Shown one piece after another: positions 1,687 through 63,859 of a DNA stretch of 64,000 nt. The notes below the pieces were generated by a model. That model was not told the origin of the DNA. It saw only the letters and a program-made list of their open reading frames with translations, and made no database searches. Source of the stretch: Anaerolineae bacterium (GTDB lineage: Bacteria; Desulfobacterota; Desulfobacteria; Desulfobacterales; ETH-SRB1); contig DATKWZ010000013.1 of the NCBI GenBank assembly GCA_035529315.1, positions 17,807 to 81,806 on the forward strand, read 5' to 3'. Made by a program: the position numbers and the translations under genes. How positions within the stretch are numbered: position 1 is the stretch's first letter; the number at the start of each line of letters is the position of its first letter.

Positions 1687-1921
1687 ATCTTGTTCATTCA
1701 GCTTGACTCGTTTCCGGTTGCTTTCAACTTCTTATTACAGGGTTAACTCTCCGCTCTATGCTCTATGCCCTATGCTCTCCGCTCTCCGCTCCCTCCCCAA
1801 TCAGAAACAGATCACCTTGTCTGTGTGAAAATAGATCCTTCGGGAATCATAACCTCCGAGATTCCGGCTAATGAGCTTGATCCCTTCAATTTTCAAAAAC
1901 TCAAGGACAAACCCGACATTT

Positions 1922-2809
1922 TCACTCCGGTTTCCTGTACATGGCTCTATCAACGTTCTGGAATCTTTCGTTAATACCGTGCAATGATTCTGAATGACCG
2001 ATAAAGAGATATCCGCCTGGAACGAGCTGGTCGTAAAACTTTTCGAATAATTTTCTCTGAGTCTGCTGGTCAAAATATATGACTACATTGCGGCAGAATA
2101 TTATGTCCATGCTCGGCCTGATACCAAAATCTTTGTCCATAAAGTTGAGATGGCGGAAGGTAATACAATTACGCAATTCCGGAACAACGCGGCAGAGCTC
2201 CTTTTGAGAGTTTTTACCGCGCATCAGGTATTTCTCTCGCCACATGGCAGGAACCTGTTCAACCGTTTTTTTTAGATAGATCGCTTTTTTTGCCGTGGCA
2301 AGCATCTGGGTGGATATGTCCGTAGCAAGTATGGCAAACTTGTCAAGTGGCCGAGTAGTCAAAAAGAACTCTGCCAGGACCATGGCCAGGGTGTAAGCCT
2401 CTTCCCCGCTGGAACACCCGGCGCTCCAGATGTTCAGCCTCCTCATATTTCCTGTCTGTTTTGACCCGGCAAGCAACGGCAAAACATTCTTTGTCAGAAA
2501 GTCAAAATGCTCCGCCTCACGAAAAAATTCAGTCTTGTTTGTAGTGACTACGTCTATCATCCTGGCAAGTTCTTTAGAGCGACCATGGGGGCTGCTAACA
2601 TAGTCATAGTACTCGCTGTAAGAGGTCAATCCAAGATCACGCAATCGCTTGAGAAGCCTGGCTGTGAGCATGGCCTTCTTGGCAGGCGACATCTTGATGC
2701 CGCATTGGGCGTAAATAAACTCGCTGAAACGCTTAAACTCCTGATTTGACATGGTGGGAGAGTAAAACGCCTGGTTTGCGGCTCTATTCTTCTGTTGCAT
2801 ATTGTACAT
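1922..2809 (-). CDS. cheR: Chemotaxis protein methyltransferase CheR
   Basis: 295 aa. N-terminal helical CheR_N-like region (FKRFSEFIYAQCGI). SAM-dependent methyltransferase core IWSAGCSSGEEAYTLAM ... IIFCRNVVIYFD. The exact start (M1, M4 or M20) is uncertain. Confidence 0.9.
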   Translation of the reverse strand: MYNMQQKNRAANQAFYSPTMSNQEFKRFSEFIYAQCGIKMSPAKKAMLTARLLKRLRDLGLTSYSEYYDYVSSPHGRSKELARMIDVVTTNKTEFFREAEHFDFLTKNVLPLLAGSKQTGNMRRLNIWSAGCSSGEEAYTLAMVLAEFFLTTRPLDKFAILATDISTQMLATAKKAIYLKKTVEQVPAMWREKYLMRGKNSQKELCRVVPELRNCITFRHLNFMDKDFGIRPSMDIIFCRNVVIYFDQQTQRKLFEKFYDQLVPGGYLFIGHSESLHGINERFQNVDRAMYRKPE

Positions 2810-3026
2810 AATTTACTCAACGACTCCCCCCCACCCAACAACATCCTGGCAACGTGAAATGAACCGCCACACCGTTTCCCTCTAAGGGCAGAAGGGGCTC
2901 AACCCAGATTCTTGCAACTCAAATCTTAGATTTTTTGACTCTACTTCTGTCTCAAATAGTGACAAAGCCTTCTTTGTCAGGTCAACAAGGTTGATAAAAG
3001 TAAAATCTGTGTTATTCACGGTTGAC

Positions 3027-3638
3027 TTAAAGGCATGTTATGTCTTGAGCTTTTTTAAGCAGTTCGCTTGCGCTTCTATGAACAAATAAGGCTTTTTCCA
3101 CATAGTTCTTCGCGCTTGCAGATTTATCAAATGCCATAACAGCCATCTCGAGATAGCCTGAAACAACCATACTCAAATTGCTTAAATCGTGGATAATCAT
3201 GCTCGCAAAGTCTTTATTGAGAGCTAATTTCTCTCTGGAATAATCTAAAGTTTTCTTTGTCTTGAAAAATGTCTTTACGCAGGCCCGGATTAAACTCTGA
3301 TTAAAAGGCTTGACTATAAATCCCTCTCCCCCGGACTCAATCCCCTTTTTATGAAAATCAGGATCAGAAAGAACTGTAGTAAAAAGCACGGGTACACCTT
3401 GGGTACCTGTGTCATTCTTTAAGGTCTTGCAAACCTCAAATCCTGAAATCCCCGGCATCATAACATCTATAATAACCAGATCCGGCTTGATATCTCTGAC
3501 CAATTTTAACGCTTTTTCGCAGTTGTCAACGTGATATATGCAATAATTATCGGATTGTAGATATCCTTCCAAAATCATACCGGAAACCGGATCATCCTCA
3601 ACGATTAGAATTTTAGGTTGATTATTCATACTTGTCAT
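3027..3638 (-). CDS. Response-regulator receiver fused to a DHp/HisKA-like helical domain, with no ATPase domain
   Basis: 203 aa. REC motifs ILIVEDD, DLVIIDVMMPGISG, FIVKPF. The C-terminal ~70 aa contain an H-box-like IIHDLSNLSMVVSGYLEM. No N/G1/G2 boxes follow. Confidence 0.75.
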   Translation of the reverse strand: MTSMNNQPKILIVEDDPVSGMILEGYLQSDNYCIYHVDNCEKALKLVRDIKPDLVIIDVMMPGISGFEVCKTLKNDTGTQGVPVLFTTVLSDPDFHKKGIESGGEGFIVKPFNQSLIRACVKTFFKTKKTLDYSREKLALNKDFASMIIHDLSNLSMVVSGYLEMAVMAFDKSASAKNYVEKALFVHRSASELLKKAQDITCL

Positions 3639-3879
3639 TTGTCACTTATCATTGGTCATTGGATTGAATATTGAAAATCAAAGGAATAAATCTTCAATTC
3701 AGCTTAATTGTCTCGTCAAAGCGATAGATAAAGCAAATAAAGGGCCAGGTGGAGAGAAAAATTAATTTTTTTTAAGAGAGGATTTGTGGCGACCAGCTAA
3801 ATATTGCAACATCTGGCATAAAGGAATTATGCGGCACACAATATATGGCAGGATAGTGCTTTTAGAGGTGATCAAATTT

Positions 3880-4006
3880 TGATGGACTCGTAAAAAAGAA
3901 AAATTTACCACGGATGGCACAGAGCGCGCAGAGATAACTATTTAAAATTGCAAAGTTTTCCTCTGTGTTCTCAGCGGTGCGAACCGACCTTCTACGAAGT
4001 CATCAA
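3880..4006. mobile_element. MITE-like element, variant copy (terminal inverted repeats of the cgtaaaaag type)
   Basis: Left end TGATGGACTCGTAAAAAAG. The right end, reverse-complemented, is TGATGACTTCGTAGAAGG. The interior has its own inverted words (ggcacagagcgcgcagag / ctctgtgttctcagcggtgc). No ORF. Confidence 0.5.
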
Positions 4007-4170
4007 TATTTATAATAGAAAATGAATTCCGAAGCAAAAAAGGAAGGGAAAAATGGTTCAGGTGGCCGACGATCAACCTGATACAGCTCATATCTATTTG
4101 TTATTGCAAAGAATAAAGGCCAACAGGCTTATTTTGAGCCAAGGCGGCTGAAAAACGGCCATTCATTCAA

Positions 4171-5910: not shown

Positions 5911-6399
5911 TCACATTACCAGAGCGGAAGAAATTATTTCTCCTTTTTCACATGCCTTTTCTTCGGAAAATACCTTATTTTCTGTTATGGGATGTTGAAC
6001 AGGATAATTAGGATCAACAAGAATAACCTGTTTTGCCAGCATTTTTTTTGAATTTACCACGATGGGAGCTCTAAGGTTTGCCGTTACCTTGAAAGGATCG
6101 GAACGGATCGTTACGACAGAAAATAAAACCACATCCTCAGGCGATGAGATTTCAAGTAATCTCGCTTCATCGTCAGATATTAACGGCTCGTAATCCTGTT
6201 TTACAACAAGGGAGTTGATAACGACAAAAGCGACCGAACCATCCTCAACGGACTGAAACCACCAGAAGGGATTCTTTTCCTCCTGTATGAGGAGTACATA
6301 TCTTCCCAGGTGTTCAAACCCCAGCATTCCCCCCTTTATCCAAATAACCCTGGATTCATCAATACCTATGTCTCCAAAACGGGTGGTAGAAATTCTCAC
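5911..6399 (-). CDS. fliW: Flagellar assembly factor FliW (CsrA antagonist)
   Basis: [30 protein letters not shown]... is a typical FliW N-terminus. The GTG at 6399-6397 overlaps the csrA stop (TAGTG), so I prefer it to the longer track ORF ending at 6435. Confidence 0.85.
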   Translation of the reverse strand: MRISTTRFGDIGIDESRVIWIKGGMLGFEHLGRYVLLIQEEKNPFWWFQSVEDGSVAFVVINSLVVKQDYEPLISDDEARLLEISSPEDVVLFSVVTIRSDPFKVTANLRAPIVVNSKKMLAKQVILVDPNYPVQHPITENKVFSEEKACEKGEIISSALVM

Positions 6400-6656
6400 T
6401 AAACTTCCTCCTCTGGATTTTTCAGTCTGTTCCATATATTAGACAGACTCTTGCCTGTTGAATTATCGCGCGCTGTCTCTACCGCCAGGATATTCTGTTC
6501 CCTGATCATTTGATAAACCTCCTCGCGATGAATGGTTACATCCGCGGGGGCATCTATCCCTATCCTTAGCTGCTTTCCCCTTGCCTCGAGGATAGTAACC
6601 TTGATTTCATTACCAATTCTTATTGTTTCGCCTAACTTCCTTGTCAGGATCAGCAT
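6399..6656 (-). CDS. csrA: Carbon storage/translational regulator CsrA
   Basis: 85 aa. [48 protein letters not shown] is the canonical CsrA fold sequence. Located between flgL and fliW. Confidence 0.95.
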
Positions 6657-6661: not shown

Positions 6662-7894
6662 TTATCTAAGAAAATCGAGTATTGTTAAATTTCCTATCTT
6701 TGAGGCCACACTGTACGACGCTTGCAAAGCAATCTCTTTCATGGCAAACTTGCTGATTATTTCAGATATATCTGCATCTTCCACGCTGGACATCAGCTCG
6801 GTCAGATTCAGATTCATATCAGCCATGGTATTTTTCGCTATCTCTAATCTGATCATCCTGTTGCCGCACCTGGAAATATTTTCCGATATTTGATCAGATG
6901 AATCCTTAAGACCGTCTATGCAGGCCGCAATGCCGTCCGGATCATTATTCTCCAGAGCCGTCTTCAAATCATTGAGAACCCCGAATACATCAACACTCCC
7001 ATTCCCCTTGTCCGTAAAGGCTGCTTCACCTGAAATGGAGTAAGCAAAGGAGCTCCCTTCTGCGACATTAACCGATAGTTCCTCGCCGTTGCCGTTGTAA
7101 TACCCTGTAGCAAAGGCATGGACATAAAAGATATCACCCGCAGCCAGCTCAGGATCGGCCGCACCGGTATCATCAAAGGTCAAGACTATGCCGTCACCTA
7201 TGTCGCCGGTATCTACTGAACCGCTATCCGGCAATACAAAGGTTTTCCCTGTTGATGTCCAGGTTGCCCCTCCATCATCAGACACATCATAGGTTGCGGT
7301 TTCTGTCACATTATCCCAGGCGGTAATCTTCACCGCATAAGTCTTGTTTACACTGCCTGTATATGTGCCGCTGGACGTCACGCTACCGTCAAAAGTATTC
7401 CCTTCAGCCGCGGCAGCCGTTCCTATCCCAGCAACAGTTCTTTCGGAAGATGAAAAAGGAGTTTCTCCGGTTTTCGTGCCCGAAAAAAGATATTTGCCCT
7501 CATACTTTGAATTGGCAAGGGAAAGCATTTCATCTATAAGCTGCTGCACGGTCTCGGCTTCGGTGCTTCGCACCTCGGCAGATGAGGTTGCTGTTGACTG
7601 GGCAACAGCCACTTCTCTGGCCTTTATTAGAAGGTCGCCCGCAAACGACAGTTTTGATTCCGTAATAGTGATCCATGATCCACGGCTATCAATGTTCTTG
7701 CTGTACTGTTCGACAGACGCCTTGGTTTCTCGAAAATTCAGCACCCTGCTCATGCCGATGGGATCATCCGAAGGTCTGTTAATTTCCTTTAGTGAAGCAA
7801 TTTTTTCAGCGAGTTTATTATAACCCTCCTGGGCCTGAAACATACTATTGACCATTGTATTAAATTTCATGTTTTCTGATATACGCATTACCAT
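6662..7894 (-). CDS. flgL: Flagellar hook-associated protein 3 FlgL
   Basis: 410 aa. Flagellin-like N terminus ([16 protein letters not shown]) and C terminus ([22 protein letters not shown]). Follows flgK. Confidence 0.85.
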
Positions 7895-8110
7895 AATACT
7901 GCCTCATAGACGTGTTAAGTGTTAGGTGTTAGGCAATTGATAAAACAAAGAATTGCCTCAACCTAATCCTCTAATCCCTTAATCCTCTAACCTATACATT
8001 CTGGATTCCGGCTTCCGCCGGAATGACGAAGGAAAGACGCCTTCTCACCCTCTAATCCCTGACCCCCGATCCCTGACCTCCCCTAGCTCTTAGCTCTATG
8101 CTCTCAGCTT

Positions 8111-9487
8111 CTACTGCACCAGGCTCATCAGGGTATCCGCCAGTTCCTGTGTGGTGACGAAAAGCCTGGCCGAAGCATTATAACCGGTCTGATATTTGAT
8201 AAGGTTCATCATCTCCTCATCAATCGACACCCCGGAAATTTCTTCTCTCTTGTTCGCAAACTGGTTCATAAGATTTGTATGATGATCAACACGACTGTTT
8301 GCATACGCAACATCCTGACCGATCTGCGCCACGAAAGAAGAATAATAGGAACTGAACGTTGATTTGCCAGTGTTCATAGTCAGTTCATCTTTTATCTGAC
8401 TCATGGTTACGGCATTTCCACCATCGCCGTTTACCGTCGATGATGCCGCTATCTTATTTACATCCGCGACAATAGCGTCGGCAACCTTTATATATCTGGC
8501 CTCTTCGACTCCTGTGTCAAATGCAAAGAAATTTTCGCCCAGGTTTTGATTAATATCATAACCCAGTATATGCTGGGCATTTACCTGATCAACTATGGTT
8601 TTAGCCAGGTCATCAAGGCTATCCATATAGCCTACCGCCGTGGTGTCGCGAATATCCAGGAAAGCCGCCAGGCTTCCCTTTGTTATAGAACTATTAATCA
8701 CGGTATCTGTGTCATCTTTCAAAACAACGTCATAAAAAGAAGGATCAGAGGGGTGGTTCTCGGTCACGACATCAAGTTCCCATGTCTGACCGCCTTCTAC
8801 CAGCGGCATGCCATTGGACAGGAAGATGCTTATTGAACCACTTGAATCCGTGACAGTATGGAAATTGGCAACCTCGGCCATCTCTAATAAAAGGGTTGTC
8901 CTTTTGTCTCTGAGACTATTCAGACCAGGCTCCTCCGCAACCGCCGTTCCAGACTGTAGAATCCTGTCGTTTATATCAGCAATATCAGATGCATAGCTGT
9001 TGATCTTATCCACCAGAACCGGTATCCGTGTATTTGCGTCATCTTTCACGGAAATCAGCTCATTGCTATATGACCGAAACATGGACGTCAGACTCTGGGA
9101 AACAGACACCAGCGCCTGTCTTTCAGCCTGCCCGGAAGGATTTGTCGACAAATTCTCCCAGGCACCCCAGAATTTATTCAACAATTCATTAATACCCCCG
9201 CCGTCAGTCTCGTTAAATGTCATTTCAATCCTGTCCAGCGCGTCCTTTTTAGCTTCACTGTCCCCGAGATCATTTGCCTGCTCATTTATCTGAGCCTCTA
9301 AAAACCGATCATATATCCTTTCTATCCCTGTTATCTCAACACTTTGAACCAAGGCGCTGAATGCCGCCCGCTGCCTCGAATATCCAGTGGTGTTTGCATT
9401 GGCAATATTGGTCCCTGTAATATTTATCGCTGTCTGATGACTCAACAGACTATCTTTCGCGGTGTTCAATGCGTCGATACCGGACAT
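8111..9487 (-). CDS. flgK: Flagellar hook-associated protein 1 FlgK
   Basis: 458 aa. Axial-protein N-terminal motif INITGTNIANANTTGYSRQ. C-terminal EEMMNLIKYQTGYNASARLF. Confidence 0.9.
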   Translation of the reverse strand: MSGIDALNTAKDSLLSHQTAINITGTNIANANTTGYSRQRAAFSALVQSVEITGIERIYDRFLEAQINEQANDLGDSEAKKDALDRIEMTFNETDGGGINELLNKFWGAWENLSTNPSGQAERQALVSVSQSLTSMFRSYSNELISVKDDANTRIPVLVDKINSYASDIADINDRILQSGTAVAEEPGLNSLRDKRTTLLLEMAEVANFHTVTDSSGSISIFLSNGMPLVEGGQTWELDVVTENHPSDPSFYDVVLKDDTDTVINSSITKGSLAAFLDIRDTTAVGYMDSLDDLAKTIVDQVNAQHILGYDINQNLGENFFAFDTGVEEARYIKVADAIVADVNKIAASSTVNGDGGNAVTMSQIKDELTMNTGKSTFSSYYSSFVAQIGQDVAYANSRVDHHTNLMNQFANKREEISGVSIDEEMMNLIKYQTGYNASARLFVTTQELADTLMSLVQ

Positions 9488-10770: not shown

Positions 10771-10836
10771 TTACTGATCCCTGACCCCTAATCCCTGACC
10801 TCTAATCCTTAATCCTCTACCCTATAATCCCTGATC

Positions 10837-12015
10837 CTATATTACCTTTAAATCCGCCTGGAGCGCCCCTGCAGATTTGATTGTCTGCAATATGGTTATC
10901 AGATCTCCTGGCGTAACACCTATTGCGTTGAGCGCCCTTACAACCTCCTGAATAGTAACCCCCTCCGGTACCACCACCAGGCGATTCTTCTCTTCTTCAA
11001 CACCGATTTCCGTTTCAGTTGTTACAACCGTCTGTCCTCCCGGAGCGATCAGCGTGCCGTCTCCGGCATCAACCGGAGCGCTGCCGGCAGGAGGAGCAGG
11101 GGCAAAGGGGGACGGCTGAGACACCCCTTTTTCCTCTTTTATCTGGATGAACAAATTCCCATGGGCAACGGCAACTGTGGATATTCTTACATTTTCTCCC
11201 ATAACAATCGTGCCGGTCTTCTCATCTATGACCACAACCGCGGGTGAGTCAACCGCAACATTAATGTTTTCAACAATCGAGACAAGCTTCACCATACTCC
11301 CTTTAAAAGATTCCTTTATATTTACAGCAACGGTAGATGAATCAACAAGCTTCGCCTCCACGCCCGCTATCACACCATTTATGGCTGTGGCCACCCCTGT
11401 CGCAGTTGTAAAATCAGGTCGATAAAGATTTATGGAAAGTGACTTCCTGTTTTCAAAATTGTACTCCAATTCCCTTTCGACAAAGGCGCCGTTTGTAATC
11501 CGACCGACAGTCGGGTGATTCTTGGAAATGTTCGCGCCCCCCCCGCCTGCGGCAAAACCTCCGATAGATACAGCGCCCTGCGCCACTGCATAGACATTGC
11601 CGTCCGCCCCCCGAAGCGGTGTCATAAGGAGAGTCCCTCCACGCAGGCTGTTTGCATCACCGATGGATGAAACCACAACATCTATTCTCGACCCCACCTT
11701 GGAGAACGGGGGAAACTCGGCGCTGATCATAACTGATGCCACATTATCTGAAGTCAGGTTATTTCTGGACTCTTCTTTCATCCCAAGCCCCTGCCTGCTC
11801 AACATATTGGCAAGAGTTTCCTTTGTGAATCCGTTTTCAATATCATCGCCGGTTCCAGCCAGACCAACTACCAGGCCATAGCCTACCAACTGGTTATCCC
11901 TGACCCCGCCGATACTGGAAATATCCTTGATACGTACAGCATAAGCATGAGACGCAATAACCAGACCAGCCATTAAAAAAATGGCAATATATTTGAAAAC
12001 TTTCCTTTTTTTCAT
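10837..12015 (-). CDS. flgI: Flagellar P-ring protein FlgI
   Basis: Signal peptide MKKRKVFKYIAIFLMAGLVIASHAYA, then VRIKDISSIGGVRDNQLVGYGLVVGL. I prefer ATG 12015 to the longer track ORF (12054), which overlaps flgH. Confidence 0.9.
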   Translation of the reverse strand: MKKRKVFKYIAIFLMAGLVIASHAYAVRIKDISSIGGVRDNQLVGYGLVVGLAGTGDDIENGFTKETLANMLSRQGLGMKEESRNNLTSDNVASVMISAEFPPFSKVGSRIDVVVSSIGDANSLRGGTLLMTPLRGADGNVYAVAQGAVSIGGFAAGGGGANISKNHPTVGRITNGAFVERELEYNFENRKSLSINLYRPDFTTATGVATAINGVIAGVEAKLVDSSTVAVNIKESFKGSMVKLVSIVENINVAVDSPAVVVIDEKTGTIVMGENVRISTVAVAHGNLFIQIKEEKGVSQPSPFAPAPPAGSAPVDAGDGTLIAPGGQTVVTTETEIGVEEEKNRLVVVPEGVTIQEVVRALNAIGVTPGDLITILQTIKSAGALQADLKVI

Positions 12016-13480: not shown

Positions 13481-13499
13481 TCCTCTAATCCTCTAATCC

Positions 13500-14282
13500 T
13501 TACCTCTTGAGGCCGTTAGCCATCTGCAGCATCGCATCCGCTGTCTGGATTGCCTTTGAATTTATCTCGTATGATCTCTGGCCCACAATCATCTTGACCA
13601 TCTCATCCACAACATTTACATTTGACATCTCTAAAAAACGCTGTGAAATGGTGCCGTTCCCCGCTTCTCCGGGATTTCCGAGAGTAGCGTCACCGGAGGC
13701 ATCTGTTCTGTCATAGAGATTTCTCCCCAGGCTGGTAAGTCCGGCGGGGTTGGTAAACCTGGCAAGCTCTATTCTCCCTGTCGCCAGGGAATTGCCTTGC
13801 TCATCGCTTGCCGTCCATGTGCCTCCGCTGTCAAGGGTAAAATGTACCATTTCCATGGGTACGTCCACTGCAGGTATCAATTTAAGCCCTTCAGAATTAC
13901 ACAGAGAGCCATCCTTATCAACCTTGAAATTGCCTGCCCGTGTGTAAACAGTACGCCCATTATCATCAATCTGGAAAAAGCCATCCCCTTCAATAGCAAA
14001 GTCGAATGGATTGTCCGTCTGCATATAATCACCCTGGCCAAACATTTTTTGAACAGCCACCGGTTTTACACCCATACCGATCTCTATACCCACCGGCAAC
14101 TGACTCCCGCCGGATGTCTCGGCCCCTGATTTCGAATATACCTGATACATGAGATCCTGAAAATCGGCTCTTGCCTTTTTAAATCCTACGGTATTAATGT
14201 TGGCCAGGTTGTTCGCAACAACGTCCTGGCTTATCTGCTGCGCTTCCATGCCGGTTGCGGCCGTCCATAAAGCCCTTATCAT
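13500..14282 (-). CDS. flgG: Flagellar distal rod protein FlgG
   Basis: 260 aa. MIRALWTAATGMEAQQ..VANNLANINTVGFK. C-terminal MVKMIVGQRSYEINSKAIQTADAMLQ. Confidence 0.95.
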   Translation of the reverse strand: MIRALWTAATGMEAQQISQDVVANNLANINTVGFKKARADFQDLMYQVYSKSGAETSGGSQLPVGIEIGMGVKPVAVQKMFGQGDYMQTDNPFDFAIEGDGFFQIDDNGRTVYTRAGNFKVDKDGSLCNSEGLKLIPAVDVPMEMVHFTLDSGGTWTASDEQGNSLATGRIELARFTNPAGLTSLGRNLYDRTDASGDATLGNPGEAGNGTISQRFLEMSNVNVVDEMVKMIVGQRSYEINSKAIQTADAMLQMANGLKR

Positions 14283-14305: not shown

Positions 14306-14396
14306 ATCACCACGAAGAATTTTTTCTTTATCCTTGTTCCCTTTGTACTCTTTGTGGTAAAAATATCGCAGTGTGCGCCTTCAGGTTTAAGTTAAT
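14306..14396. repeat. Dispersed repeat family R1, copy 1 (flgG/flgF intergenic)
   Basis: atcaccacgaag...ctttgtggtaaaaatatcgcagtgtgcgccttcaggtttaagttaat. About 75% identical to copy 2, in the same orientation. Confidence 0.75.
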
Positions 14397-14410: not shown

Positions 14411-15124
14411 TTACAATCTCCCGATACGGCTTGTTGACAATTTGTCCTGTTCGCCTAAAGTCTGAATCGCTTTCTGGTATGATTCAAACGTGCGCTGTAT
14501 ATTGATCATTTCAACCATTTCTCTTATAGCCTGGACATTGGAAAGCTCAAGATATCCGGATTGAACACGTGCATTTTCTTCCTTTTTTGCGCCCGCCAGA
14601 TTATCAGGATTAAGATAGAGGCCGGGATTAAGCTTAACAAGAGCAGATGGTTCGCTAAAACCGGTGATCTTCAATGTATCAACTTCATTGCCGTCCACAC
14701 TTATTACGCCGTCTTCGCTTATCAGGACGTTGTTCCCCTCAATGGCAATTTTTCCTCCTCCGCCAAGAACATAATCTCCGGCCTGTGTAACCAGCCCTCC
14801 ATCCTTATTGAGCGTAAACCTTCCATCTTTTGTATAAGCAACACCGGCTTTTGTTTGAACAGCAAAAAATCCATCCCCGTCTATTGCCAGTTCCAGAACA
14901 TTGCCGGTTTTCTGCATAATTCCCCTGGAATAATCGGCCGTTGTTTCCTGTGTCTGCGCGGGTCTGCCTTTATTCGCCTCCGCTTCGGGGCCTGGATTTA
15001 AAAAAAGGAACCGCTCTGCCTTGAAACCGGGGGTGTTAACATTGGCAATATTGTTCGCGACACAATCAAGCCGGCTAATCTGCATTATAGCCGCATTTGC
15101 CAGTATATCGATACCGTTAATCAT
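14411..15124 (-). CDS. flgF: Flagellar proximal rod protein FlgF
   Basis: MINGIDILANAAIMQ..VANNIANVNTPGFK. C-terminal MVEMINIQRTFESYQKAIQ. ATG 15124 follows AGAGGAGG. The 52 upstream codons of the track ORF are translated repeat words. Confidence 0.9.
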   Translation of the reverse strand: MINGIDILANAAIMQISRLDCVANNIANVNTPGFKAERFLFLNPGPEAEANKGRPAQTQETTADYSRGIMQKTGNVLELAIDGDGFFAVQTKAGVAYTKDGRFTLNKDGGLVTQAGDYVLGGGGKIAIEGNNVLISEDGVISVDGNEVDTLKITGFSEPSALVKLNPGLYLNPDNLAGAKKEENARVQSGYLELSNVQAIREMVEMINIQRTFESYQKAIQTLGEQDKLSTSRIGRL

Positions 15125-15157
15125 GTTTCCTGCCTCCTCTTCTGTATGTGAAGTAAA

Positions 15158-15172
15158 GCAATTTGTGTGCCA
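15158..15172 (-). promoter_or_regulatory. Sigma-54 promoter for flgF-flgG-flgA-flgH-flgI-flgJ
   Basis: The minus strand reads TGGCAC-acaaa-TTGCT. ~34 nt upstream of ATG 15124, with AGAGGAGG in between. Confidence 0.8.
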
Positions 15173-15433
15173 CATGGACGGAGATCGGGAGGCGGAAAGC
15201 AGAGAGCGGAGAGCGTGGAGGAGCGGAGAGCGTGGAGCGGAGAGCAGGGAGCAGAGAACGGAAATCGGAATGAATGTCAAATGTGGAGCTCACCTATGTC
15301 AAAAACTGCTCTATTGGGCAAGGCAATCAGCATCAGGAGACAGGCAATTTTGTTTATAACAGGAAATTTTTTCCTGTTCGGCAGGCTCTTTTATATTGGT
15401 AGCAGTTTACGGTTTACAGTTATCGGTTCACGG

Positions 15434-15490
15434 TTGAAATCAATATCCAAAATGCTTCAATCGTTGCATAGTTCATTGAAAAAACTGTGA
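15434..15490 (+). pseudogene. Remnant of a second four-helix-bundle (Avd-like) gene: last 18 codons only
   Basis: The plus strand encodes LKSISKMLQSLHSSLKKL*, compared with the intact copy's LKSISKTLQSLHGSLKK (35038-35427, opposite strand). It is flanked by the same acggtt/gtgaaccg repeat words. Confidence 0.7.
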
Positions 15491-15579
15491 ACCGTAAACC
15501 GACAACCGTTAACTGTCACCTTTATCTTTTCCCATTCAACATTCGATGTTGGACGTTAGATGTTCGATGTTCATCTTTT

Positions 15580-15940: not shown

Positions 15941-16078
15941 ATGGGTTGAAGACTTATAAGTGCCTAAAGTGAGCTAAAGTGCCTAAAATGCCTAAAGTTA
16001 ATGTACGCCTCCAGCGGGCTAATTTTAAAGTTATAAGTGCTTTAAATACTTTAGCTCACTTTAGGTACTTCAAATTTA
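15941..16078. repeat. Inverted arrays of the word cctaaagtg between the FliK-like and FlhB-C-like genes
   Basis: aagtgcctaaagtgagctaaagtgcctaaaatgcctaaag ... ctttaaatactttagctcactttaggtacttc. The two arms are reverse-complementary word arrays. Confidence 0.8.
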
Positions 16079-17912: not shown

Positions 17913-17960
17913 GGCTTTCGCACCCCCTTAAAGAGTAGTAACAGTTCACTGGGAACTGAA

Positions 17961-18010
17961 TTAAGGATTAGAGGATTAAGGATTAGAGGATTAGAGGATT
18001 AGAGGATTAG
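17961..18010. repeat. Tandem 8-9-nt word array (ggattaga/ggattaag)
   Basis: ttaaggattagaggattaaggattagaggattagaggattagaggattag. The reverse-complement words (ctaatcc/ttaatcc) recur at 7965-8060, 10775-10836, 13481-13500, 18110-18140, 18300-18330, 26800-26817, 29825-29863 and 63780-63815. Confidence 0.9.
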
Positions 18011-18195
18011 TTGTTCCGCACGATTATGCCTTTGGAAACCTTGCTGACACCAGATAAACCCTGACAACCAATTTATGGGCTTTTCGCCAAAGCTTCAAAT
18101 CTTTCCAATGCACTAATCCTTACCCCTTAATCCTTAATCCTAACCATCGTAAACGGTTACAAAAAGTAAAGGTTGTTGGTTATCCTCCAACTGTT

Positions 18196-18223
18196 TTATC
18201 GTCACAATCCATCATAATCTTTA
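18196..18223 (-). promoter_or_regulatory. Sigma-28-type promoter candidate for the accessory operon (17912 to 15580)
   Basis: The minus strand reads TAAA-N16-GACGATAA. The N16 spacing matches the other minus-strand sigma-28 sites in this window. There is one mismatch in the -10 element. ~285 nt upstream of ATG 17912. Confidence 0.55.
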
Positions 18224-18329
18224 ACCTTAACAGGTCAGCCACAAAGACACCTGATTGCGAATTTAGAGATTTAGAAATTGATCCGCCTGCAGCGTGATTT
18301 TAATCCCTCAATCCCTTAATCCCCTAATC

Positions 18330-19097: not shown

Positions 19098-19144
19098 AAA
19101 TAACTTTTTATGAGTTTATCAACTTTGAGCTTTCAGCTTTGTGG

Positions 19145-20404: not shown

Positions 20405-20523
20405 GAAAAGATCCTCAGGTAGATAGGCTGAAGGCTGTAGGCTTTTAGTAGAAAGGCTCTATCTCAAGCGTATGCTTGGCGATACTTCAACCTAACAGCC
20501 TACAGCCTAAACAACCTTTTTAG

Positions 20524-24609: not shown

Positions 24610-24725
24610 TTTTAATCCACATTTACGGTTCAAGGTTCAGGGTTTAGGGTTCAAGGTTCAGGGTTACTGGTTGTTGGTTCTCTGATATCTAATCTTCTCA
24701 CCTTCTCACCCTCCGACCTCTAACC

Positions 24726-25790: not shown

Positions 25791-25807
25791 AATTTTTAGT
25801 TGTCAGG

Positions 25808-32749: not shown

Positions 32750-32752
32750 AGA

Positions 32753-44343: not shown

Positions 44344-44443
44344 TTTTAAACGCCTCCCTGCACATATTGTGAAGGTTCAAGGTTCACCGTTCAGGGTTGT
44401 TTTTTTGTTAACCTTCACTAACCTTGAACCCTGAACCGGTTAT

Positions 44444-46668: not shown

Positions 46669-46681
46669 AGTTTCTCATAAT

Positions 46682-46874
46682 TGATGAACTCGTAAAAAGT
46701 CAAAAAGTTCTCTTTCCCGTCATTCCGGCGAAAGCCGGGCACGTAGTGACACGAAGTGAAGCATCAGCGCTAACCGTTAGCGCTATCCAGTCTTTTCAAG
46801 TAGTTGCAGATCATCTGGACTCCTCCCGGACTCGATCCGTGATCTACCGGAGTGACGACTTTTTACGAATTCAT
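46682..46874. mobile_element. MITE-like element, copy A (~190 bp), exactly filling the FlrB-like/FlrC-like intergenic gap
   Basis: TIRs are TGATGAACTCGTAAAAAGTC and GACGACTTTTTACGAATTCATA. The core is gtcattccggcgaaagccg...atccagtcttttcaa..gttgcaga.catctggactcctcccggactcgatccg.gatctaccggagtgacg. Relative to copy B it carries a 47-bp insert containing the palindrome agcgctaaccgttagcgct. Confidence 0.7.
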
Positions 46875-48176
46875 AATCAATGGGAATGTAATATTAAAAA
46901 CAGCCCCACCGCCTTTATAGTTTTCTGCATCTATCGAACCGCCATGAATATCAACGATATTATGGACAATAGCAAGACCAAGGCCCGTGCCTTTCTCCTT
47001 TGTGGTAAAAAAGGGATCAAATATCTTTTTTATGTTTTTATCGGGTATTCCGAGGCCGGTGTCCATAAAACTGATTTCTACGTTTGAATTGTGAGGTTCC
47101 TTTTTTTCATCGTTGCTGTCGGAAATTTTCGTTTTAATATAGAGATTTCCTCCGCCCGGCATCGCCTGCATGGCATTCAGCATAAGATTCAAAAACACCT
47201 GCTTCAACATCTCGGCATTGCCTGTAATTACAGGATCAACATCTTCATAGTTTGTCGTAAGAATGATATTCTCTTTCCCTAAAATCTGTTCGGAAAAAAT
47301 TATAATCTCTTTAAGCACATTATGGATGCTGACCTCCTTCATCAACGGCTTTTGATCTCTTGCAAACATAAGCAGGTTGGATATTTTATTATCCATATCC
47401 TTTACAGCACTTATGATATGAGATGCCCTGTCACGATTCTTCTTCTCTTTCAGCTCCTTTATCAACAAAGAAGCAAAAAGCCCTATGCTTCCTAATGGGT
47501 TTCTTATTTCATGGGCAATGTTCGCCGCTGTTTCACCCATTGCAGCAAATTTTTCCGTCCTTTTTACCCTTTCTTCCAGCTTCTCTAAGCTTGTAATATT
47601 GCGAAGAACAACAACTCTCCCTGTTTCCTCCCCATTTTTTGATTTAACAGCAGAACCAAAGATCTCTAATATCCTTCCTTTCAGCCTTATTTTTTTCCCC
47701 AGACCACCGTCAAAATACCTTAGGTCTAAGCAGCCTTTCGGATCGGACGGGAATTCGTCTCCAAAAAGCGAATTCACATTTTTCCCCTTTACATCCTCTC
47801 TCGAAAAACCGGTAAACGCCTCGGCGCGCCGATTCATCATCGTCATTTTTCCTTCCGGATCCGCTACAATCACGCCGGTCGTAAGGCTCTCGAGGATATT
47901 CTGAAGATAGCTGCTTATCTTTTCTTTCTCTGCCAGGGCTTTTTGTAATTCAATATTTTTGGAATCCAGCTCCTTGTTTATGGCCTTAAATTTCTCTTCC
48001 AGGCCGGCAAAGGCTTTTTGCAGCCTCGCGGTTGCCCGATCAAAGCTCTCAAATGATTGTTGTAAGAACGGGTTTTCCCCTGCCTGTGCGCCATGCCTGC
48101 GGTTTCCGGTTTCCGGTTTCCGGAACCGTGAACTGTTAACTGTGCCCCCTGACCCCTTGTTTTCAATCCCCAACAT
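46863..48176 (-). CDS. PAS-domain sensor histidine kinase of the FlrB/FleS type
   Basis: 437 aa. PAS-like segment (LESLTTGVIVADPEGKMTMMNRRAEAFTGFSRED). H-box AANIAHEIRNPLGSI. N-box NLMLNAMQAM. G1 FMDTGLGI. G2 GTGLGLAIV. No TM. The first ~25 codons are repeat words. The stop codon lies inside a MITE terminal repeat. Confidence 0.9.
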   Translation of the reverse strand: MLGIENKGSGGTVNSSRFRKPETGNRRHGAQAGENPFLQQSFESFDRATARLQKAFAGLEEKFKAINKELDSKNIELQKALAEKEKISSYLQNILESLTTGVIVADPEGKMTMMNRRAEAFTGFSREDVKGKNVNSLFGDEFPSDPKGCLDLRYFDGGLGKKIRLKGRILEIFGSAVKSKNGEETGRVVVLRNITSLEKLEERVKRTEKFAAMGETAANIAHEIRNPLGSIGLFASLLIKELKEKKNRDRASHIISAVKDMDNKISNLLMFARDQKPLMKEVSIHNVLKEIIIFSEQILGKENIILTTNYEDVDPVITGNAEMLKQVFLNLMLNAMQAMPGGGNLYIKTKISDSNDEKKEPHNSNVEISFMDTGLGIPDKNIKKIFDPFFTTKEKGTGLGLAIVHNIVDIHGGSIDAENYKGGGAVFNITFPLIMNS

Positions 48177-50698: not shown

Positions 50699-50706
50699 TG
50701 CATCTT

Positions 50707-50856
50707 TGATAAGCTCGTAAAAAGTCCCAAAACACCGTTTTCCGTCATTCCGGCGAAAGCCGTAATCCAGTCTTTTCAATCAGTTGCAGACCATCTGGAC
50801 TCCTCCCGGACTCGATCCGGGATCTACCGGAGTGACGACTTTTTACAAGTTTATCA
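50707..50856. mobile_element. MITE-like element, copy B (~150 bp)
   Basis: Same TIRs (TGATAAGCTCGTAAAAAGTC ... GACGACTTTTTACAAGTTTATCA). The core is ~90% identical to copy A over ~100 bp. Lies just upstream of the sigma-54 promoter at 50684-50698. Confidence 0.7.
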
Positions 50857-50891
50857 TCCTTGACTGTTTTCTGAACCGCAAAAGCGAGCGC

Positions 50892-51355: not shown

Positions 51356-51405
51356 TTTGCCTGAATTCATCTCTATCAATAAAGAGACACAATCTAAAAA
51401 TGATG

Positions 51406-51455
51406 AACTCGTAAAAAGTTGAAAACCACTTTTTGCAAAACTTGAGTTCTCACAA
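51406..51455. mobile_element. Miniature or solo-TIR derivative of the same family
   Basis: TGATGAACTCGTAAAAAGT followed by a degenerate inverted partner (ttgcaaaacttgagttctca). Confidence 0.35.
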
Positions 51456-51617
51456 CTGAGCCTTTTGCTTTTATGTTTTGATCAACCGTTAACTGTAAAC
51501 CGTGAACCGTTATCGGATAAAGCAATTGTCATTAAGCTTGACGTAGATGACAAAAAAATGACGCTTACTGTTGGAACGGTCGTTTGCGGTTCAAAAAAAA
51601 TAAGTGGGGGTGGTATA

Positions 51618-56663: not shown

Positions 56664-56788
56664 GAAAGCATATCCTCCTTTTACGGGGTTCAAGGTTCAG
56701 CGTTCAAGGTTTAGTTCTCTGACCCCTGACCCCTTGACTTCTAATCTTCTAATCTTCTAATCCTCTAACCTTCTGCCCTTCTGCCCTA

Positions 56789-60295: not shown

Positions 60296-60430
60296 TCTAT
60301 TTCTCCTTGGTTAAGATAGTTATTCAGCCTATCCACCTAATATTTAGGGTTCATGGTTGCCGGTTCACAGTTCACAGTTTTTTTCAACCGTGAACCGATA
60401 ACTGTAAATCGTGAACTGTTATTAGTATAT

Positions 60431-60458: not shown

Positions 60459-60653
60459 AGATTATTTGCCCTGTTTGATTGATTCAGCAAAAACCAAAAT
60501 CCTGAGATCCGAAGTCGAAAATCAGGTATTAGATTAACGGAATTATATATCTTATCAAGCTCTTAACACCTGGCACCTGACACCTGATACCTGATCAATT
60601 CCTACTTTTTACAAATCCATCATGATTAACAGTAGCAAGATCTCTGCCAGATT

Positions 60654-60690
60654 AAAAAACCCCACTCCTGTTAAGAAGCGGGATTTTCGT
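60654..60690. repeat. Degenerate copy of the fliC terminator hairpin (left direct repeat flanking the ATPase cassette)
   Basis: aaaaaaccccactcctgttaagaagcgggattttcgt, compared with aaaaaccccgctcctgttaagaagcggggttttggt at 62144-62180. About 90% identical, with two stem-disrupting changes. Confidence 0.75.
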
Positions 60691-60742
60691 TTGCTTGAAA
60701 ACTCGGATTGACATTCCGAATTTTCAATGATAATATGATTAT

Positions 60743-61861: not shown

Positions 61862-62136
61862 ACGAAAACCCCGTTCAGGCACGGTTTTAAGTTTTAAGTT
61901 TTAGGTTTTAAGTTAAAAAAAAGATGCAATCTCAGAGATTTAGCAATCTCTAAACAAAATTGAAAAACCATATTTCGGGGTTTTCGTTCAGGCATCAAAT
62001 AAGATATGATGTGGAGAGCTTTGTATATTACGCCATGCGCTGAGCTCTATGCTTTAAGCTTTCACCTTCTCACCTTCCGGCTCCATACTCTTCGCTCTAA
62101 GCTCTTCGCTCCACGCTCTATGCACTTTCTGGGTCT

Positions 62137-62177
62137 AAAATAATAAAAACCCCGCTCCTGTTAAGAAGCGGGGTTTT
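62137..62177 (-). terminator. Rho-independent terminator after fliC
   Basis: The minus strand reads AAAACCCCGC-ttcttaacagga-GCGGGGTTTT followed by TATTATTTT. Lies 45 nt after the fliC stop. Confidence 0.8.
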
Positions 62178-62180
62178 GGT
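62144..62180. repeat. Right direct repeat flanking the ATPase cassette (the functional fliC terminator)
   Basis: See 60654-60690. The two copies are 1,490 bp apart and bracket the DUF4143 ATPase gene. Confidence 0.75.
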
Positions 62181-62221
62181 TTAAGGTTTACTTTGAACTC
62201 TAAGCTCCATGCTCTAAGCTC

Positions 62222-63622
62222 TTACCCAAACAACGCCAAGACCTGCTGCGGCGCCATATTTGCCTGGGCAAGCATGGCAGTACCAGCCTGAAGCAGGATC
62301 TGATTCTTGGTAAAGTCCGTCATCTCAGACGCCATATCCACATCACGGATGATAGATTCCGCGGCCTGCACATTCTCAATAGTTGTAGCGAGGTTCGCAG
62401 CAGCATAACCCAGCCTGTTCTGGGCAGCGCCTATATTACCTCTGACAGTTGCCAAAGCCGATATAGCAGAGTCAATGGTGGTAAGGGCAGATTGCGCTCC
62501 TGCAGCGGTAGCTAAATCTAAAGCGCTTATGCCAAGGCCGGACGCAGTAGCATCCCCAAGGCTGATGTTTACCCTGTCATTAGCAGTGTTGCTCGATCCC
62601 ACCTGGAAGGTGGAAGAACCAGAGCTTGCGACATCAAATGCAAAGCTGTCAAATTCATTATCCGCGTACGCTGAGTCAAGAGTGAGCTTGATGCCCAACG
62701 TGTCAAAATCCAAGGTTTGTGCGCTTCCATCAACAGTGAGCACTGTCTGCACATCACTTGTGCGGGTGTTGGTGAGAGTTATACTGTTAGCAGTAGCACT
62801 GGTTGCTGTCCAGGTCCCGGTTGCGGTAGATGAAGACAGAGTCATACTTGAGTATCCCGCATCAGTGACTATAATCGTATCAGTACCAAATGCCGTGGTG
62901 GTCATAGCACTGGCCCCAGTCAGAGTGAGTCCTATAGTTGCAAACGACAAAGTTAAGCCACCGGCTGCAAGGGTTCCCTCGAAGACTTCTCCGAGAGCAC
63001 CGGTCATCTTAACAGCTGTTCCCCCGCTGGTAGCTAACGTATATGTATCCGCCGCAAGTGCAACTGGACTGTTGAAGGTGAAAGAGACAGTTGCATTATT
63101 GGTGTTAGTATCAGTATACTTGTAATTCAGGCCATTTGTAGTATCAATATCGTAGGTAGTATCAACTAAAGATGACCCCCAAGTAGGTGTAAGCGTTCCA
63201 AACGTCCCGTCGATAAGCTTTGTCCCGGCATACTCGGTTACGCCTGAGATCCGGTCGATTTCCAAAATCAGCTCTGCCTTTTCCGCGTCGATCTTGCCCA
63301 GCTCTGTGCCGGCATTAGCCGAGGCAGCCTGGGTGGCCAGCTCTTTCAATCGAGTCAGCATATTACCGATCTGGTCCATGGCGCCTTCACCAACCTGAAG
63401 CAGAGAACTTGCCTCAGAGGCATTCCTCGAAGCCACTTTAAAGCTTGCTATGTCCGCGCGAAAACTCTGCGAAATAGCCAAACCGGCGGCATCATCGGCC
63501 GCACGGTTGATCCGATAACCGGATGAGAGTCTTTCAAGAGATTTTTTCATCCCAGCATCTGAAACACTCAACCAACGCTGGGTATTTAACGCTGCAATAT
63601 TATTTACAATTCTTAATGCCAT
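62222..63622 (-). CDS. fliC: Flagellin
   Basis: 466 aa. MALRIVNNIAALNTQRWL..LERLSSGYRINRAADDAAGLAISQ. C-terminal EMTDFTKNQILLQAGTAMLAQANMAPQQVLALF. T/S/A-rich variable centre. Confidence 0.95.
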   Translation of the reverse strand: MALRIVNNIAALNTQRWLSVSDAGMKKSLERLSSGYRINRAADDAAGLAISQSFRADIASFKVASRNASEASSLLQVGEGAMDQIGNMLTRLKELATQAASANAGTELGKIDAEKAELILEIDRISGVTEYAGTKLIDGTFGTLTPTWGSSLVDTTYDIDTTNGLNYKYTDTNTNNATVSFTFNSPVALAADTYTLATSGGTAVKMTGALGEVFEGTLAAGGLTLSFATIGLTLTGASAMTTTAFGTDTIIVTDAGYSSMTLSSSTATGTWTATSATANSITLTNTRTSDVQTVLTVDGSAQTLDFDTLGIKLTLDSAYADNEFDSFAFDVASSGSSTFQVGSSNTANDRVNISLGDATASGLGISALDLATAAGAQSALTTIDSAISALATVRGNIGAAQNRLGYAAANLATTIENVQAAESIIRDVDMASEMTDFTKNQILLQAGTAMLAQANMAPQQVLALFG

Positions 63623-63714
63623 GGTTTTATCCTCCTTGATTTTTGGTTTTGTTTAGCCGTCAGCTTTCAGCTTCTCTTGCTTTCAGCTTTGAGCTTTCAG
63701 CCTTTAGCCCCTCC

Positions 63715-63726
63715 GGCATCCTTGCC
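63715..63726 (-). promoter_or_regulatory. Candidate CsrA-binding hairpin in the fliC leader (GGA in the loop)
   Basis: The minus strand reads GGCA-AGGA-UGCC, a 4-bp stem presenting AGGA. CAAGGAUG matches the core of the CsrA SELEX consensus. A second GGA site overlaps the SD (CAAGGAGGAUAAAACC-AUG, 63623-63640). Confidence 0.55.
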
Positions 63727-63859
63727 AAAGAGTTTTTACTCTTTACCCCGTTAAATCTGTAAGCTATTTAACCGGGGCTTAATCCTTACTCCTTAAATCC
63801 TTAATGCCCACCTCCTTTCACCGTATTTATGGACTAATCTTTTTATCCATTTGATATGT

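Follow-up and report, generated by a model that had tools for sequence, protein, structure and literature searches.

The 64,000-nucleotide stretch analysed here (the window below, with positions counted from its first letter), the sequence of which is also contained in a contig of the ENA metagenome assembly ERZ27256834, carries, according to Pfam annotation and public gene calls, one large flagellar and chemotaxis cluster, encoded nearly throughout on the minus strand, and many of the spacers between its genes hold degenerate tandem arrays of seven- or eight-nucleotide words, which are the subject of this work. The genes comprise cheR, genes of sigma-54 activators, fliW-csrA, flgL, flgK, flgN, flgM, flgJ, flgI, flgH, flgA, flgG, flgF, fliA, flhG, flhF, flhA, flhB, fliRQPONML, motB, motA, flgE, flgD, fliK, fliJ, fliI, fliH, fliG, fliF, fliE, flgC, flgB, fliS, flaG, fliD and the flagellin gene. 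Sigma-54 sites lie at 32734-32749 (motA), ~15150-15166 (flgF), 38118, 50683 and 5736, and sigma-28 sites at 63860-63887 (flagellin), 60431 (fliD), 53280 (fliS) and 10379 (flgM).

As to the host, proteins identical to those of the window bear the NCBI name 'MAG TPA ... [Anaerolineae bacterium]' (MAG, metagenome-assembled genome); their near relatives (76-90% identity) are all named Desulfobacterales, Deltaproteobacteria or Thermodesulfobacteriota. For this reason we treat the host as an uncultured Desulfobacterales-like bacterium, the NCBI label being probably that of a mis-binned or mislabelled MAG. Among the GTDB genomes the best FlhA match was just 65% identical, and those loci contain no arrays; the loci of the related species considered below were obtained through protein look-ups, not from GTDB genomes.

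Tandem Repeats Finder (TRF) returned 92 rows for the window, and 47 of the 65 intergenic rows had a period of 7 or 8. Arrays of all periods cover 1359 of the 8311 intergenic bases (16.4%) versus 1.4% of the coding bases, and 20 within-gap shuffles produced only 0-119 array bases (0-1.4%). In the flagellar loci of 80 other genomes the median was 2.7 array bases per kb, versus 26.8 in the window. A measure based on exact tandem matches was dropped as too strict for degenerate units, and TRF with shuffles was used instead. The first-pass annotation of this DNA had listed 20 example sites and a vocabulary of words, and both stood: period-7 or period-8 arrays were found at 19 sites by TRF and at the remaining one, 25808-25880, by sequence reading and inverted-repeat tests, while the named families were all recovered (CTAATCC, CCCTGAT, GGGGTCG, ACGGTT/GTGAACC, GGTTCAG, AGGCTGA, GCTCTAT, ACCCTCTC, AAGTGCCTA, GTGTTAG, ACACCTG, GTTTTAA, TCAGCTT and TTCGATG).

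The extent of the phenomenon had been overstated, however. Nearly every gap was said to be filled with arrays; these are real, but they occur in approximately 25 of the 42 gaps of at least 39 nt (~60%), and only some short gaps (10771-10836, 13481-13500, 24634-24725, 25791-25898, 29825-29863, 39299-39339 and 40648-40709) consist largely of such words. Pairs of a word and its reverse complement are indeed enriched, inverted 12-mers with at most one mismatch being present in 13 of 40 gaps versus 13 of 200 length-matched coding segments, yet this is about a third of the gaps, and the other two thirds have no inverted pair. Nor are the array-bearing gaps purely intercistronic, as several of them hold sigma-54 or sigma-28 promoters. 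The general claim that this is not ordinary spacer DNA nevertheless proved right, since the arrays are far above chance and about a third of the gaps are able to form long imperfect hairpins. When the gaps of at least 60 nt were folded, 13 of 34 had a z-score below -2 relative to dinucleotide shuffles (mean z -2.1).

The arrays change by whole units within the species. Other samples yielded same-species contigs (ENA ERZ27256827, Logan SRR8554643 and others, JGI 3300031539) that match the window at 99.7-100% identity. The indels among these short-read assemblies number three in total, each consisting of whole units within tandem repeats: +7 nt (CTGATCC) at 32752, accompanied by unit swaps, in the array 32753-32831; +8 nt (one unit, TCCTCTAA) at 17990 in the array 17960-18010; and 45 nt (three units) in a 15-nt repeat of a coding region, 28632-28737. 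Compared with the rest of the sequence, change in the arrays is approximately tenfold faster per base. The coding repeat itself (minus strand, seven copies, KPVEE-like), which differs between two of the same-species samples, is located in an open reading frame (ORF) of the fliN/fliO region.

Between species the turnover is much more extensive. Six related species with the same gene order were compared, their loci being labelled L084, L215, L085 (assembly GCA_030611115.1), L212 (assembly GCA_034723035.1), L213 and L214; in this order, FlhB is 87, 84, 83, 80, 78 and 76% identical to that of the window, and arrays make up 17, 16, 1.7, 19, 0.8 and 0% of the intergenic DNA, versus 26% in the window's species across the stretch compared. 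The total spacer amounts to ~3 kb in the window's species and L212, the most array-laden, and to 1-2 kb in the other five, with 1.1 and 1.0 kb in the two array-poorest relatives. Where the window has gaps of 100-150 nt, L085, L213 and L214 have 2-40 nt (the flhB-flhA gap, for example, is 116 nt long in the window and 2 nt in L085). What the relatives keep is the gap edges, that is, the stop, the Shine-Dalgarno sequence and the sigma-54 promoter (GGATTTTTTGACRCAAGCGTCAG...CAACTAAAAATT in fliR-flhB, GGAGACAACTTAG before fliM, TGGCAC-N5-TTGCT before motA), and the array between these edges varies in word or length or is absent. The flhG-fliA gap contains two units of a word in the window versus eight units of the same word in L212; gaps of L084 hold arrays of other words (TAGTCGAG and GAGCAAC), and the fliR-flhB, flhB-flhA and fliQ-fliR gaps have different words or none in the relatives. 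The array-free L214 carries GCGTCAGGGAATGGTCA at the site where the window, L215 and L085 carry expanded GTCAGGG-type arrays, which points to seeding from local proto-words. Since relatives run the same operon without arrays, the operon does not need them.

The first-pass annotation had left it undecided whether the arrays are specific to this locus. They are not strictly flagellar: in the adjacent chemotaxis operon, arrays occupy the cheR-cheD and cheA-cheY gaps, and pyrC of the window's genome (L216, 15954-16003), a dihydroorotase gene in a housekeeping operon, contains a perfect in-frame (AACTCAA)x7, which adds LKTQNSK x2 in a variable loop of the protein. This recent expansion seems to have survived because the reading frame was kept. 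In the 10 kb of housekeeping DNA sampled from the window's genome, the arrays are sparser. Arrays of GGTTCAR were found in at least 120 metagenome contigs with a GC content of 0.42-0.68, many of which carry several other heptamer families; these contigs belong to many organisms and include telomere-like eukaryotic ones, and none of them represents the window's organism. A network of heptamers linked by single substitutions was dropped as uninformative, as everything becomes connected once rotation and strand are allowed for.

Table 1. Arrays and array-armed hairpins in the window (G4, G-quadruplex; cells are empty where nothing is to be reported)
Feature	Position	Strand	Context	Basis
GGGATT(T/G)A array	1354-1375		1 nt past upstream ORF stop	TRF
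GAGCGGA/GAGCATA array, ~6 units	1747-1791		complement family at 15179-15262	TRF
CTAACAC array, 3 units	7912-7933		17 nt ahead of flgL start	TRF
AGGATTAG array, 3.5 units	7963-7990		also matches arrays 17960-18010 and 10799-10826	TRF
GGGTCAG/GGGATCG words (G4-capable), then GAGCATA/GAGCTAA array	8048-8109		begins 1 nt after flgK stop	TRF
GGGATTA/GGGTCAG/AGGATTA words, G-rich in mRNA sense	10774-10841		whole flgI-flgJ gap	TRF
AGGATTAG array, 2.5 units	13481-13500		whole flgG-flgA gap	TRF
84-nt CTCTCCG-type array, C-rich in mRNA sense	15179-15262		abuts flgF sigma-54 promoter (TGGCACacaaaTTGCT, ~15150-15166)	TRF
ACGGTTT-family inverted array pair	15403-15512		arms 15405-15421 / 15483-15499	inverted-repeat search
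TTCGATG array, 4.4 units	15542-15572		7 nt past flhB-C-like stop	TRF
AAGTGCCTA (9-nt) inverted array pair	15958-16070		30-nt arms, 87% complementary	TRF, inverted-repeat search
CTAATCC(T) array (17960-18010) facing AGGATTA arrays (18114-18141, 18300-18330)	17960-18330			TRF, inverted repeats
AAGCTGA array, 3 units	19119-19140			TRF
AGGCTGT/ACAGCCT inverted pair	20425-20509		flhG-fliA gap; 8 units at orthologous L212 site	TRF, inverted repeats
GGTGAGAA words, then GGTTCAG-family array (CTGAACC in mRNA sense)	24622-24725		flhB to flhA	TRF
GGGTCAG/GGGATCG inverted-pair hairpin	25808-25880		fliR-flhB gap; grown from conserved edge GCGTCAGGGAATGGTC	sequence reading, inverted-repeat tests
GGGTGAGA (5.4 units) and AGGGATTA (2 units) array, G4-capable in mRNA sense	26757-26818		directly past fliQ stop	TRF
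AAGGATT/AAGGAGT array	29834-29853		runs into fliM Shine-Dalgarno	TRF
GGATCAG (5 units) grading into GGGGTCG (6 units)	32753-32831		abuts motA sigma-54 promoter (32734-32749); partner 33073-33092	TRF, inverted repeats
Dispersed array-armed hairpin module, loop GTTGATTAAAGGAAATAGTGT	32830-32900	+	copies at other gaps in L212, L213	
CCCTGAT array, 2.9 units	33073-33092		inverted partner of 32753-32789	TRF, inverted repeats
GGTTCAC-word hairpin	33149-33184	-	directly after flgE stop	conserved in 4/6 species
CCTGAAC array, 3 units	39308-39330		fills fliI-fliJ gap	TRF
AGGCTGA array, 4.4 units, and short inverted partner	40654-40709		fliH-fliI gap	TRF
GGTTCAG/CTGAACC inverted pair	44372-44440		flgC-fliE gap	TRF, inverted 12-mers
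ACGGTT-family array	51484-51510			TRF
GGCAGAAG, GATTAGAA, GGGGTCA, then CTTGAAC arrays	56687-56787		after fliD stop	TRF
ACGGTT-family hairpin module	60340-60420		37-nt block in common with 15403-15439	sequence comparison
ACACCTG array, 4 units	60566-60594			TRF
GTTTTAA array, 4.4 units	61884-61914			TRF
GAAGGTGA and GAGCTTA/GAGCGAA arrays	62062-62222		3' of flagellin stop	TRF
AAGCTGA (5.7 units) and TAAGGAT (3.9 units) arrays	63660-63805		flagellin 5' leader (sigma-28 promoter 63860-63887)	TRF

In our opinion, the arrays are probably hypermutable and dispensable heptamer simple sequence repeats (SSR), seeded locally, remodelled by slippage and spread in part as hairpin blocks, with a few of the hairpins possibly co-opted. 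Short local proto-words, such as GTCAGGG at the conserved fliR-flhB edge, would seed the arrays, and replication slippage of whole units would make them grow, shrink and drift. They would be close to neutral and would persist only in places that tolerate a period not divisible by three, i.e., in spacers, upstream of promoters and in leaders, and rarely in an in-frame protein loop. Some array-armed hairpin blocks would be copied to new gaps, either in the manner of miniature inverted-repeat transposable elements (MITE) and REPINs (hairpins formed by paired repetitive extragenic palindromic, REP, sequences), or by template switching or gene conversion. Such copying would account for the reverse-complement pairs facing each other and for the vocabulary common to the gaps, and, the arrays being co-transcribed, the pairs will fold. 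RNA folding would be mainly a by-product. A few hairpins, e.g., that behind flgE, may since have taken on a role as 3' stabilisers or barriers.

The first-pass annotation had put forward, as one option, a dedicated system of intercistronic structured RNA, and this suggestion was not supported. The relatives run the same operon with 0-2% arrays, the arrays change by whole units between samples, and the two longest C-rich arrays immediately precede sigma-54 promoters instead of separating coupled cistrons. If selection acted on the sense RNA, G.U mismatches should outnumber A.C ones in the stems; in a strand-symmetric stem search we counted, in mRNA sense, 8 G.U, 15 A.C and 26 other mismatches versus 441 Watson-Crick pairs, and this lack of a G.U excess gives no sign of RNA-level selection on pairing. 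Candidate intrinsic terminators in the window (23 versus 20.3 +/- 4.6 in shuffles) were not enriched, and none of them is an array hairpin; the idea of array hairpins as intrinsic terminators was rejected. Two real terminators, ~60655-60692 and ~62145-62182, have the classic GC stem and T run, unlike the array hairpins. Known RNA families and tRNA-derived elements were likewise rejected, as Rfam 15 gave no match at gathering score across the 64 kb and the tRNA scan of the window was empty. Independently of the arrays, two small hairpins are conserved in all seven species regardless of array content, UGACGCAAGCGUCA after fliR (25870-25898 and orthologous gaps) and GUCAAAUUUCUGACGACCCGUCA after flgE (33095-33125); these are candidate genuine cis-regulatory RNA elements.

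Several observations nevertheless weigh against the view of the arrays as slippage-driven dispensable repeats, and most of them count in favour of a selected RNA-level operon architecture, in which G-first hairpins and stop-rich units would insulate cistrons, set the stability of mRNA segments and tune flagellar stoichiometry, like REP sequences and bacterial interspersed mosaic elements (BIME) of E. coli. Read-through ribosomes would then be stopped in all three frames and C-rich RNA would be hidden from Rho. Nearly all arrays with a start 0-20 nt past a stop codon are rich in G or in purines in mRNA sense (GGATTAG, GGGTCAG, GGGTGAGA, GAGCATA, GGCAGAAG), those near the next start or promoter are C-rich, and the last 10-20 nt ahead of each start, which hold the Shine-Dalgarno sequence, are array-free. 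Every array-type inverted pair has its G-rich arm on the 5' side and its C-rich arm on the 3' side, an order that reads identically on both strands and that pure drift does not predict; in the window and relatives taken together, G-first order predominates in 21 gaps, while the seven C-first gaps represent terminators or non-array hairpins. A stop triplet in mRNA sense is present in 32 of 45 units versus 22.9 +/- 2.8 after shuffling (P ~0.0015), only four of the 45 units having none on either strand, and since periods 7 and 8 are not multiples of three, a stop-bearing array closes all three frames within three units. As nearly all genes of the window are on one strand, array orientation relative to transcription is not separable here from that relative to replication. 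In 24 of 34 gaps the more stable fold is that of the mRNA-sense strand, although this signal is weak. The post-flgE hairpin is kept in four of six species, with one pair being G-C in the window, G.U in L084 and A-U in L212, i.e., a compensatory series, and judging by sequence it may be a 3' stabiliser or barrier for the abundant message of the hook protein.

Two further points of this kind concern the distribution of the arrays and the data themselves. Arrays make up 16-26% of the intergenic bases in flagellar and chemotaxis operons versus 3.6% in the 10 kb of housekeeping DNA, and in L215 no arrays were found in five housekeeping gaps, though its flagellar gaps have them; this contrast may stem from the large number of unconstrained junctions that long operons have, or from a true enrichment in motility operons. 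The copy-number differences, in turn, come from short-read metagenome assemblies, in which repeats can be misassembled. The reading that we favour leaves unexplained the G-arm-first order, the enrichment of stop triplets, the conserved post-flgE hairpin and the possible enrichment in motility operons. We still consider selected RNA architecture unlikely, though not negligible. It is in keeping with the folding excess, with the untouched Shine-Dalgarno edges and with the position of the two longest unpaired C-rich arrays at operon ends before sigma-54 promoters, a place at which the loading of Rho would do no harm or would be of use; however, three relatives (L085, L213 and L214) manage with 0-2% arrays, words and lengths vary at orthologous sites, as does copy number within the species, the stem mismatches have no wobble bias, and most gaps lack a pair.

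An extension of the same idea, for which the arm order, the stop triplets and the possible motility enrichment leave room, would be a lineage-specific way of operon building, in which heptamer arrays are admitted to transcribed spacers only if they are 'Rho-proof' (G arm first) and 'ribosome-proof' (three frames closed). With the G-rich arm first, the C-rich arm would be paired as soon as it is made, and the long unpaired C-rich arrays would serve as Rho-loading sites at operon ends before sigma-54 promoters; a companion, heptamer-specific copying mechanism would spread the array-armed hairpins. We regard this conjecture as quite doubtful.

The other option raised at first, that the arrays are debris of hairpin-forming mobile elements, received direct support for one word family. 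A 37-nt block at 15403-15439 recurs inverted 45 kb away, at 60382-60418, with 95% identity and the same order of four variant words. A hairpin module of ~75 nt, with ACGGTTT-type arms around the conserved 21-nt loop GTTGATTAAAGRAAATAGTGT, is present in the flgE-motA gap of the window, in the fliQ-fliR and (inverted) flhBc-flgF gaps of L212 and in the fliQ-fliR gap of L213, that is, at three different gaps, in both orientations and in three species; in L212, a 103-nt hairpin module is triplicated in tandem. At least one of the families thus spreads to new sites, whether as a MITE/REPIN-like unit or through template switching or conversion. It seems improbable, however, that the arrays as a whole are mainly remnants or arms of small non-autonomous elements of this type and the words their degenerate terminal repeats, even though the same gaps also contain insertions of other MITE-like palindromes and of a gene of the 23S-IVP family. 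In most arrays there is no unique internal sequence that recurs at another site, and many are partnerless and occur in a single orientation. Moreover, they grade from conserved local sequence, and neither target duplications nor a clean contrast of filled and empty sites was found at the arrays; no transposase or RAYT-like gene (RAYT, REP-associated tyrosine transposase) was found among the Pfam-annotated ORFs of the window, and the whole-unit polymorphism indicates slippage.

The locus and its relatives also hold other repeats and insertions. The 21-nt motif GACTTTTTACGAGYTCATCAA is present in seven copies (0 expected), at 46681-46701, 46857-46877, 50706-50726, 50837-50857, 51400-51420, 19102-19122 and 27863-27883, including two inverted pairs 110-155 nt apart and one copy in the 5'-terminal part of the annotated fliP ORF. 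The motif is often preceded by a CCGGCTTTCGCCGGAATGAC-type hairpin and seems to be a small repeat or MITE family of its own. Nested palindromes of MITE/REP-like appearance, unrelated to the heptamer words, lie in array-bearing gaps (32905-33050; 7995-8030; 46770-46800), one being GAGACCTTTGCA...TGCAAAGGTCTC enclosing GTCATTGCGAGCGAAGCGAAGCAATC...GATTACTTCGTCGTGTCGCTCCTTGCAATGAC and another a CATTCCGGCGGAAGCCGGAATCC hairpin. A MITE-like element of ~165 nt, GAATAAATAACTCATACA...TGTATAACTTATTTATTC, is located in the fliO-fliP and fliP-fliQ gaps of L212 in opposite orientations (7436-7730 and 8460-8692) and upstream of fliQ in L215 (8285-8450). The IVP gene mentioned above is a 129-aa ORF of the 23S_rRNA_IVP four-helix-bundle family (PF05635) at 35038-35427 (minus strand), between flgD and flgE, adjoining an ACGGTT-word array; L084, L085, L212, L213 and L214 have no gene at this site.

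A role at the level of DNA or of protein binding, with G-quadruplex/i-motif or curved DNA modulating sigma-54 promoters, or with the arrays as multivalent sites for CsrA, cold-shock proteins or S1, is in our view very unlikely. Ideas of structure and protein binding have been raised for the same repeat class (PMC4679880, PMC4692102), and in the window the -24 elements of the motA and flgF sigma-54 promoters are each directly adjoined by one of the largest arrays, GGA motifs occur in AGGATTA/AAGGAGT words, csrA and fliW belong to the cluster and the flagellin leader contains arrays. Four arrays are G4-capable versus none in 55 kb of coding DNA; but they are just four out of ~46, because of which G-quadruplex was rejected as a general explanation. 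At least 14 unrelated word families cannot all suit one sequence-specific protein, and the relatives keep their sigma-54 promoters while the arrays upstream of these are absent or different.

As for other features of the gene cluster, csrA and fliW adjoin the flgL/flagellin-like gene (6399-6656, minus strand). In the 5' leader of flagellin (63623-63860), 3' of the sigma-28 promoter, the TAAGGAT/TAAGGAG arrays are rich in GGA motifs, and by their sequence these could be CsrA sites. Near-identical leader modules are located upstream of fliL, flgD and an ompA-like gene (30378-30403 and 36164-36189, minus strand; 31871-31907 and 36187-36223); they consist of CTTTGTGGCTGAAYTAYTGCAAAAAA plus AGGAGGGT and of a 37-nt block containing TTGACAAATTATA, and are maybe common regulatory or promoter cassettes. 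Another block, of 30 nt (CGCACACTGCGATATTTTTACCACAAAGAG in mRNA sense), is common to the gaps before flgG and fliK (14348-14377 and 38034-38063) and overlaps the sigma-28-like match TAAA-N-GCGATAT. The starts of the longest ORFs at 14411-15280, 22525-24633 and 31957-32718 cross arrays or promoters: that of flgF spans the sigma-54 promoter and the 84-nt array, and those of flhA and motA are likewise over-extended. Public gene calls start further downstream, so the arrays can mislead naive ORF calling.

Heptanucleotide arrays were reportedly first known from cyanobacteria (1990), with Xanthomonas and the giant sulfur bacteria following later. The locus extends this class to a Desulfobacterales-like lineage and bears on long-standing questions, namely the reason for a seven-base unit, the way in which the arrays spread and their possible function. 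It also offers a natural experiment, in which close relatives carry the same 21-kb flagellar operon with arrays making up 0%, 1-2% and 16-26% of its spacer DNA; comparison of array-rich and array-poor relatives could reveal the driver of proliferation, for example a mobilising enzyme or a variant polymerase or repair protein, and the effect of arrays on transcript boundaries. In practical terms, the arrays enlarge spacers 2-3 fold and, apart from misleading ORF callers, are weak points in short-read assembly.

Among known systems, the short tandemly repeated repetitive sequences (STRR) of cyanobacteria, reportedly described by Mazel and colleagues in 1990, are said to be tandem heptanucleotides, of which STRR1-3 (CCCCAGT, TTGGTCA and CAACAGT) occur in heterocystous cyanobacteria. 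The window arrays resemble them in being non-coding, in the co-existence of several families, in strain variability and in having no established function; the words differ, however, and the nearest protein relatives belong to Desulfobacterales/Deltaproteobacteria, not to heterocystous cyanobacteria. In more general terms, the arrays have the properties of heptanucleotide long simple sequence repeats (LSSR): head-to-tail copies of a 5-11-nt (typically 7-nt) unit beyond chance, preference for non-coding DNA, copy change by whole units, as seen in short-read assemblies, and a site that is often retained with varying length and sequence. According to the accounts of Mrazek (2007) in PMC4679880 and PMC4692102, heptanucleotides are the commonest long SSR class in many prokaryotes, and polymerase slippage was suggested as their origin.

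The GGGAATC arrays of Xanthomonas are ~90% intergenic and transcribed, their sites are retained and their length varies across species, and each genome contains 70-75 convergent inverted pairs (Rehm et al., 2015, PMC4692102); Nostoc has GGGGA(T/C)T arrays (PMC4692102). Like these G-rich GGGNATC/GGGGATT units of 7 nt, the window has GGGATCA, GGGATTA and GGGGATTA, the first two being identical with the published units or a single substitution away, and it shares with Xanthomonas the mostly intergenic position near gene ends, the convergent pairs with the same arm order (G arm first throughout) and sites kept between related species with variable length and sequence. Unlike Xanthomonas and Nostoc, it has at least 14 word families instead of one, a Desulfobacterales-like host, a much higher local density and related species that may have no arrays at all, and most of its words are not G4-capable: at least four tracts of three or more G with short loops are found only in the minority family mentioned above.

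TAACTGA repeats have been described from marine Beggiatoaceae, from cyanobacteria and from a small number of Bacteroidetes, and are lacking in close relatives (MacGregor, 2015, PMC4679880). These repeats are similar to the window arrays as intergenic tandem heptamers with stop triplets in the unit and a patchy occurrence among close relatives, and in Microcystis (PMC4679880) and some Bacteroidetes several heptamers are mixed, as here. The ACGGTTT/TAACTGT family of the window is one substitution away from TAACTGA, which itself is absent from the window as a tandem repeat. In Beggiatoaceae, 2-6 copies of one word in one orientation directly precede start codons, whereas in the window many words in both orientations mostly start after stops.

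With REP, BIME and REPIN sequences the arrays share short extragenic inverted pairs, hairpins within operons, unit-wise dispersal and proposed effects on mRNA stability (PMC3116915, PMC3733652). REPs, however, are single palindromes of 20-40 nt with the conserved head GTAG/CGTC, mobilised by RAYT transposases (Bertels and Rainey, 2011, PMC3116915; Di Nocera et al., 2013, PMC3733652), whereas the arms in the window are variable-copy tandem words of 7-8 nt from many families, spaced by 0 to 316 nt. In the literature searched, no paper linking such arrays to Desulfobacterota was found. Taken together, the arrays belong to the known heptanucleotide simple sequence repeat class of the STRR/LSSR kind, in a new lineage, and for this class they are unusually dense and word-rich.

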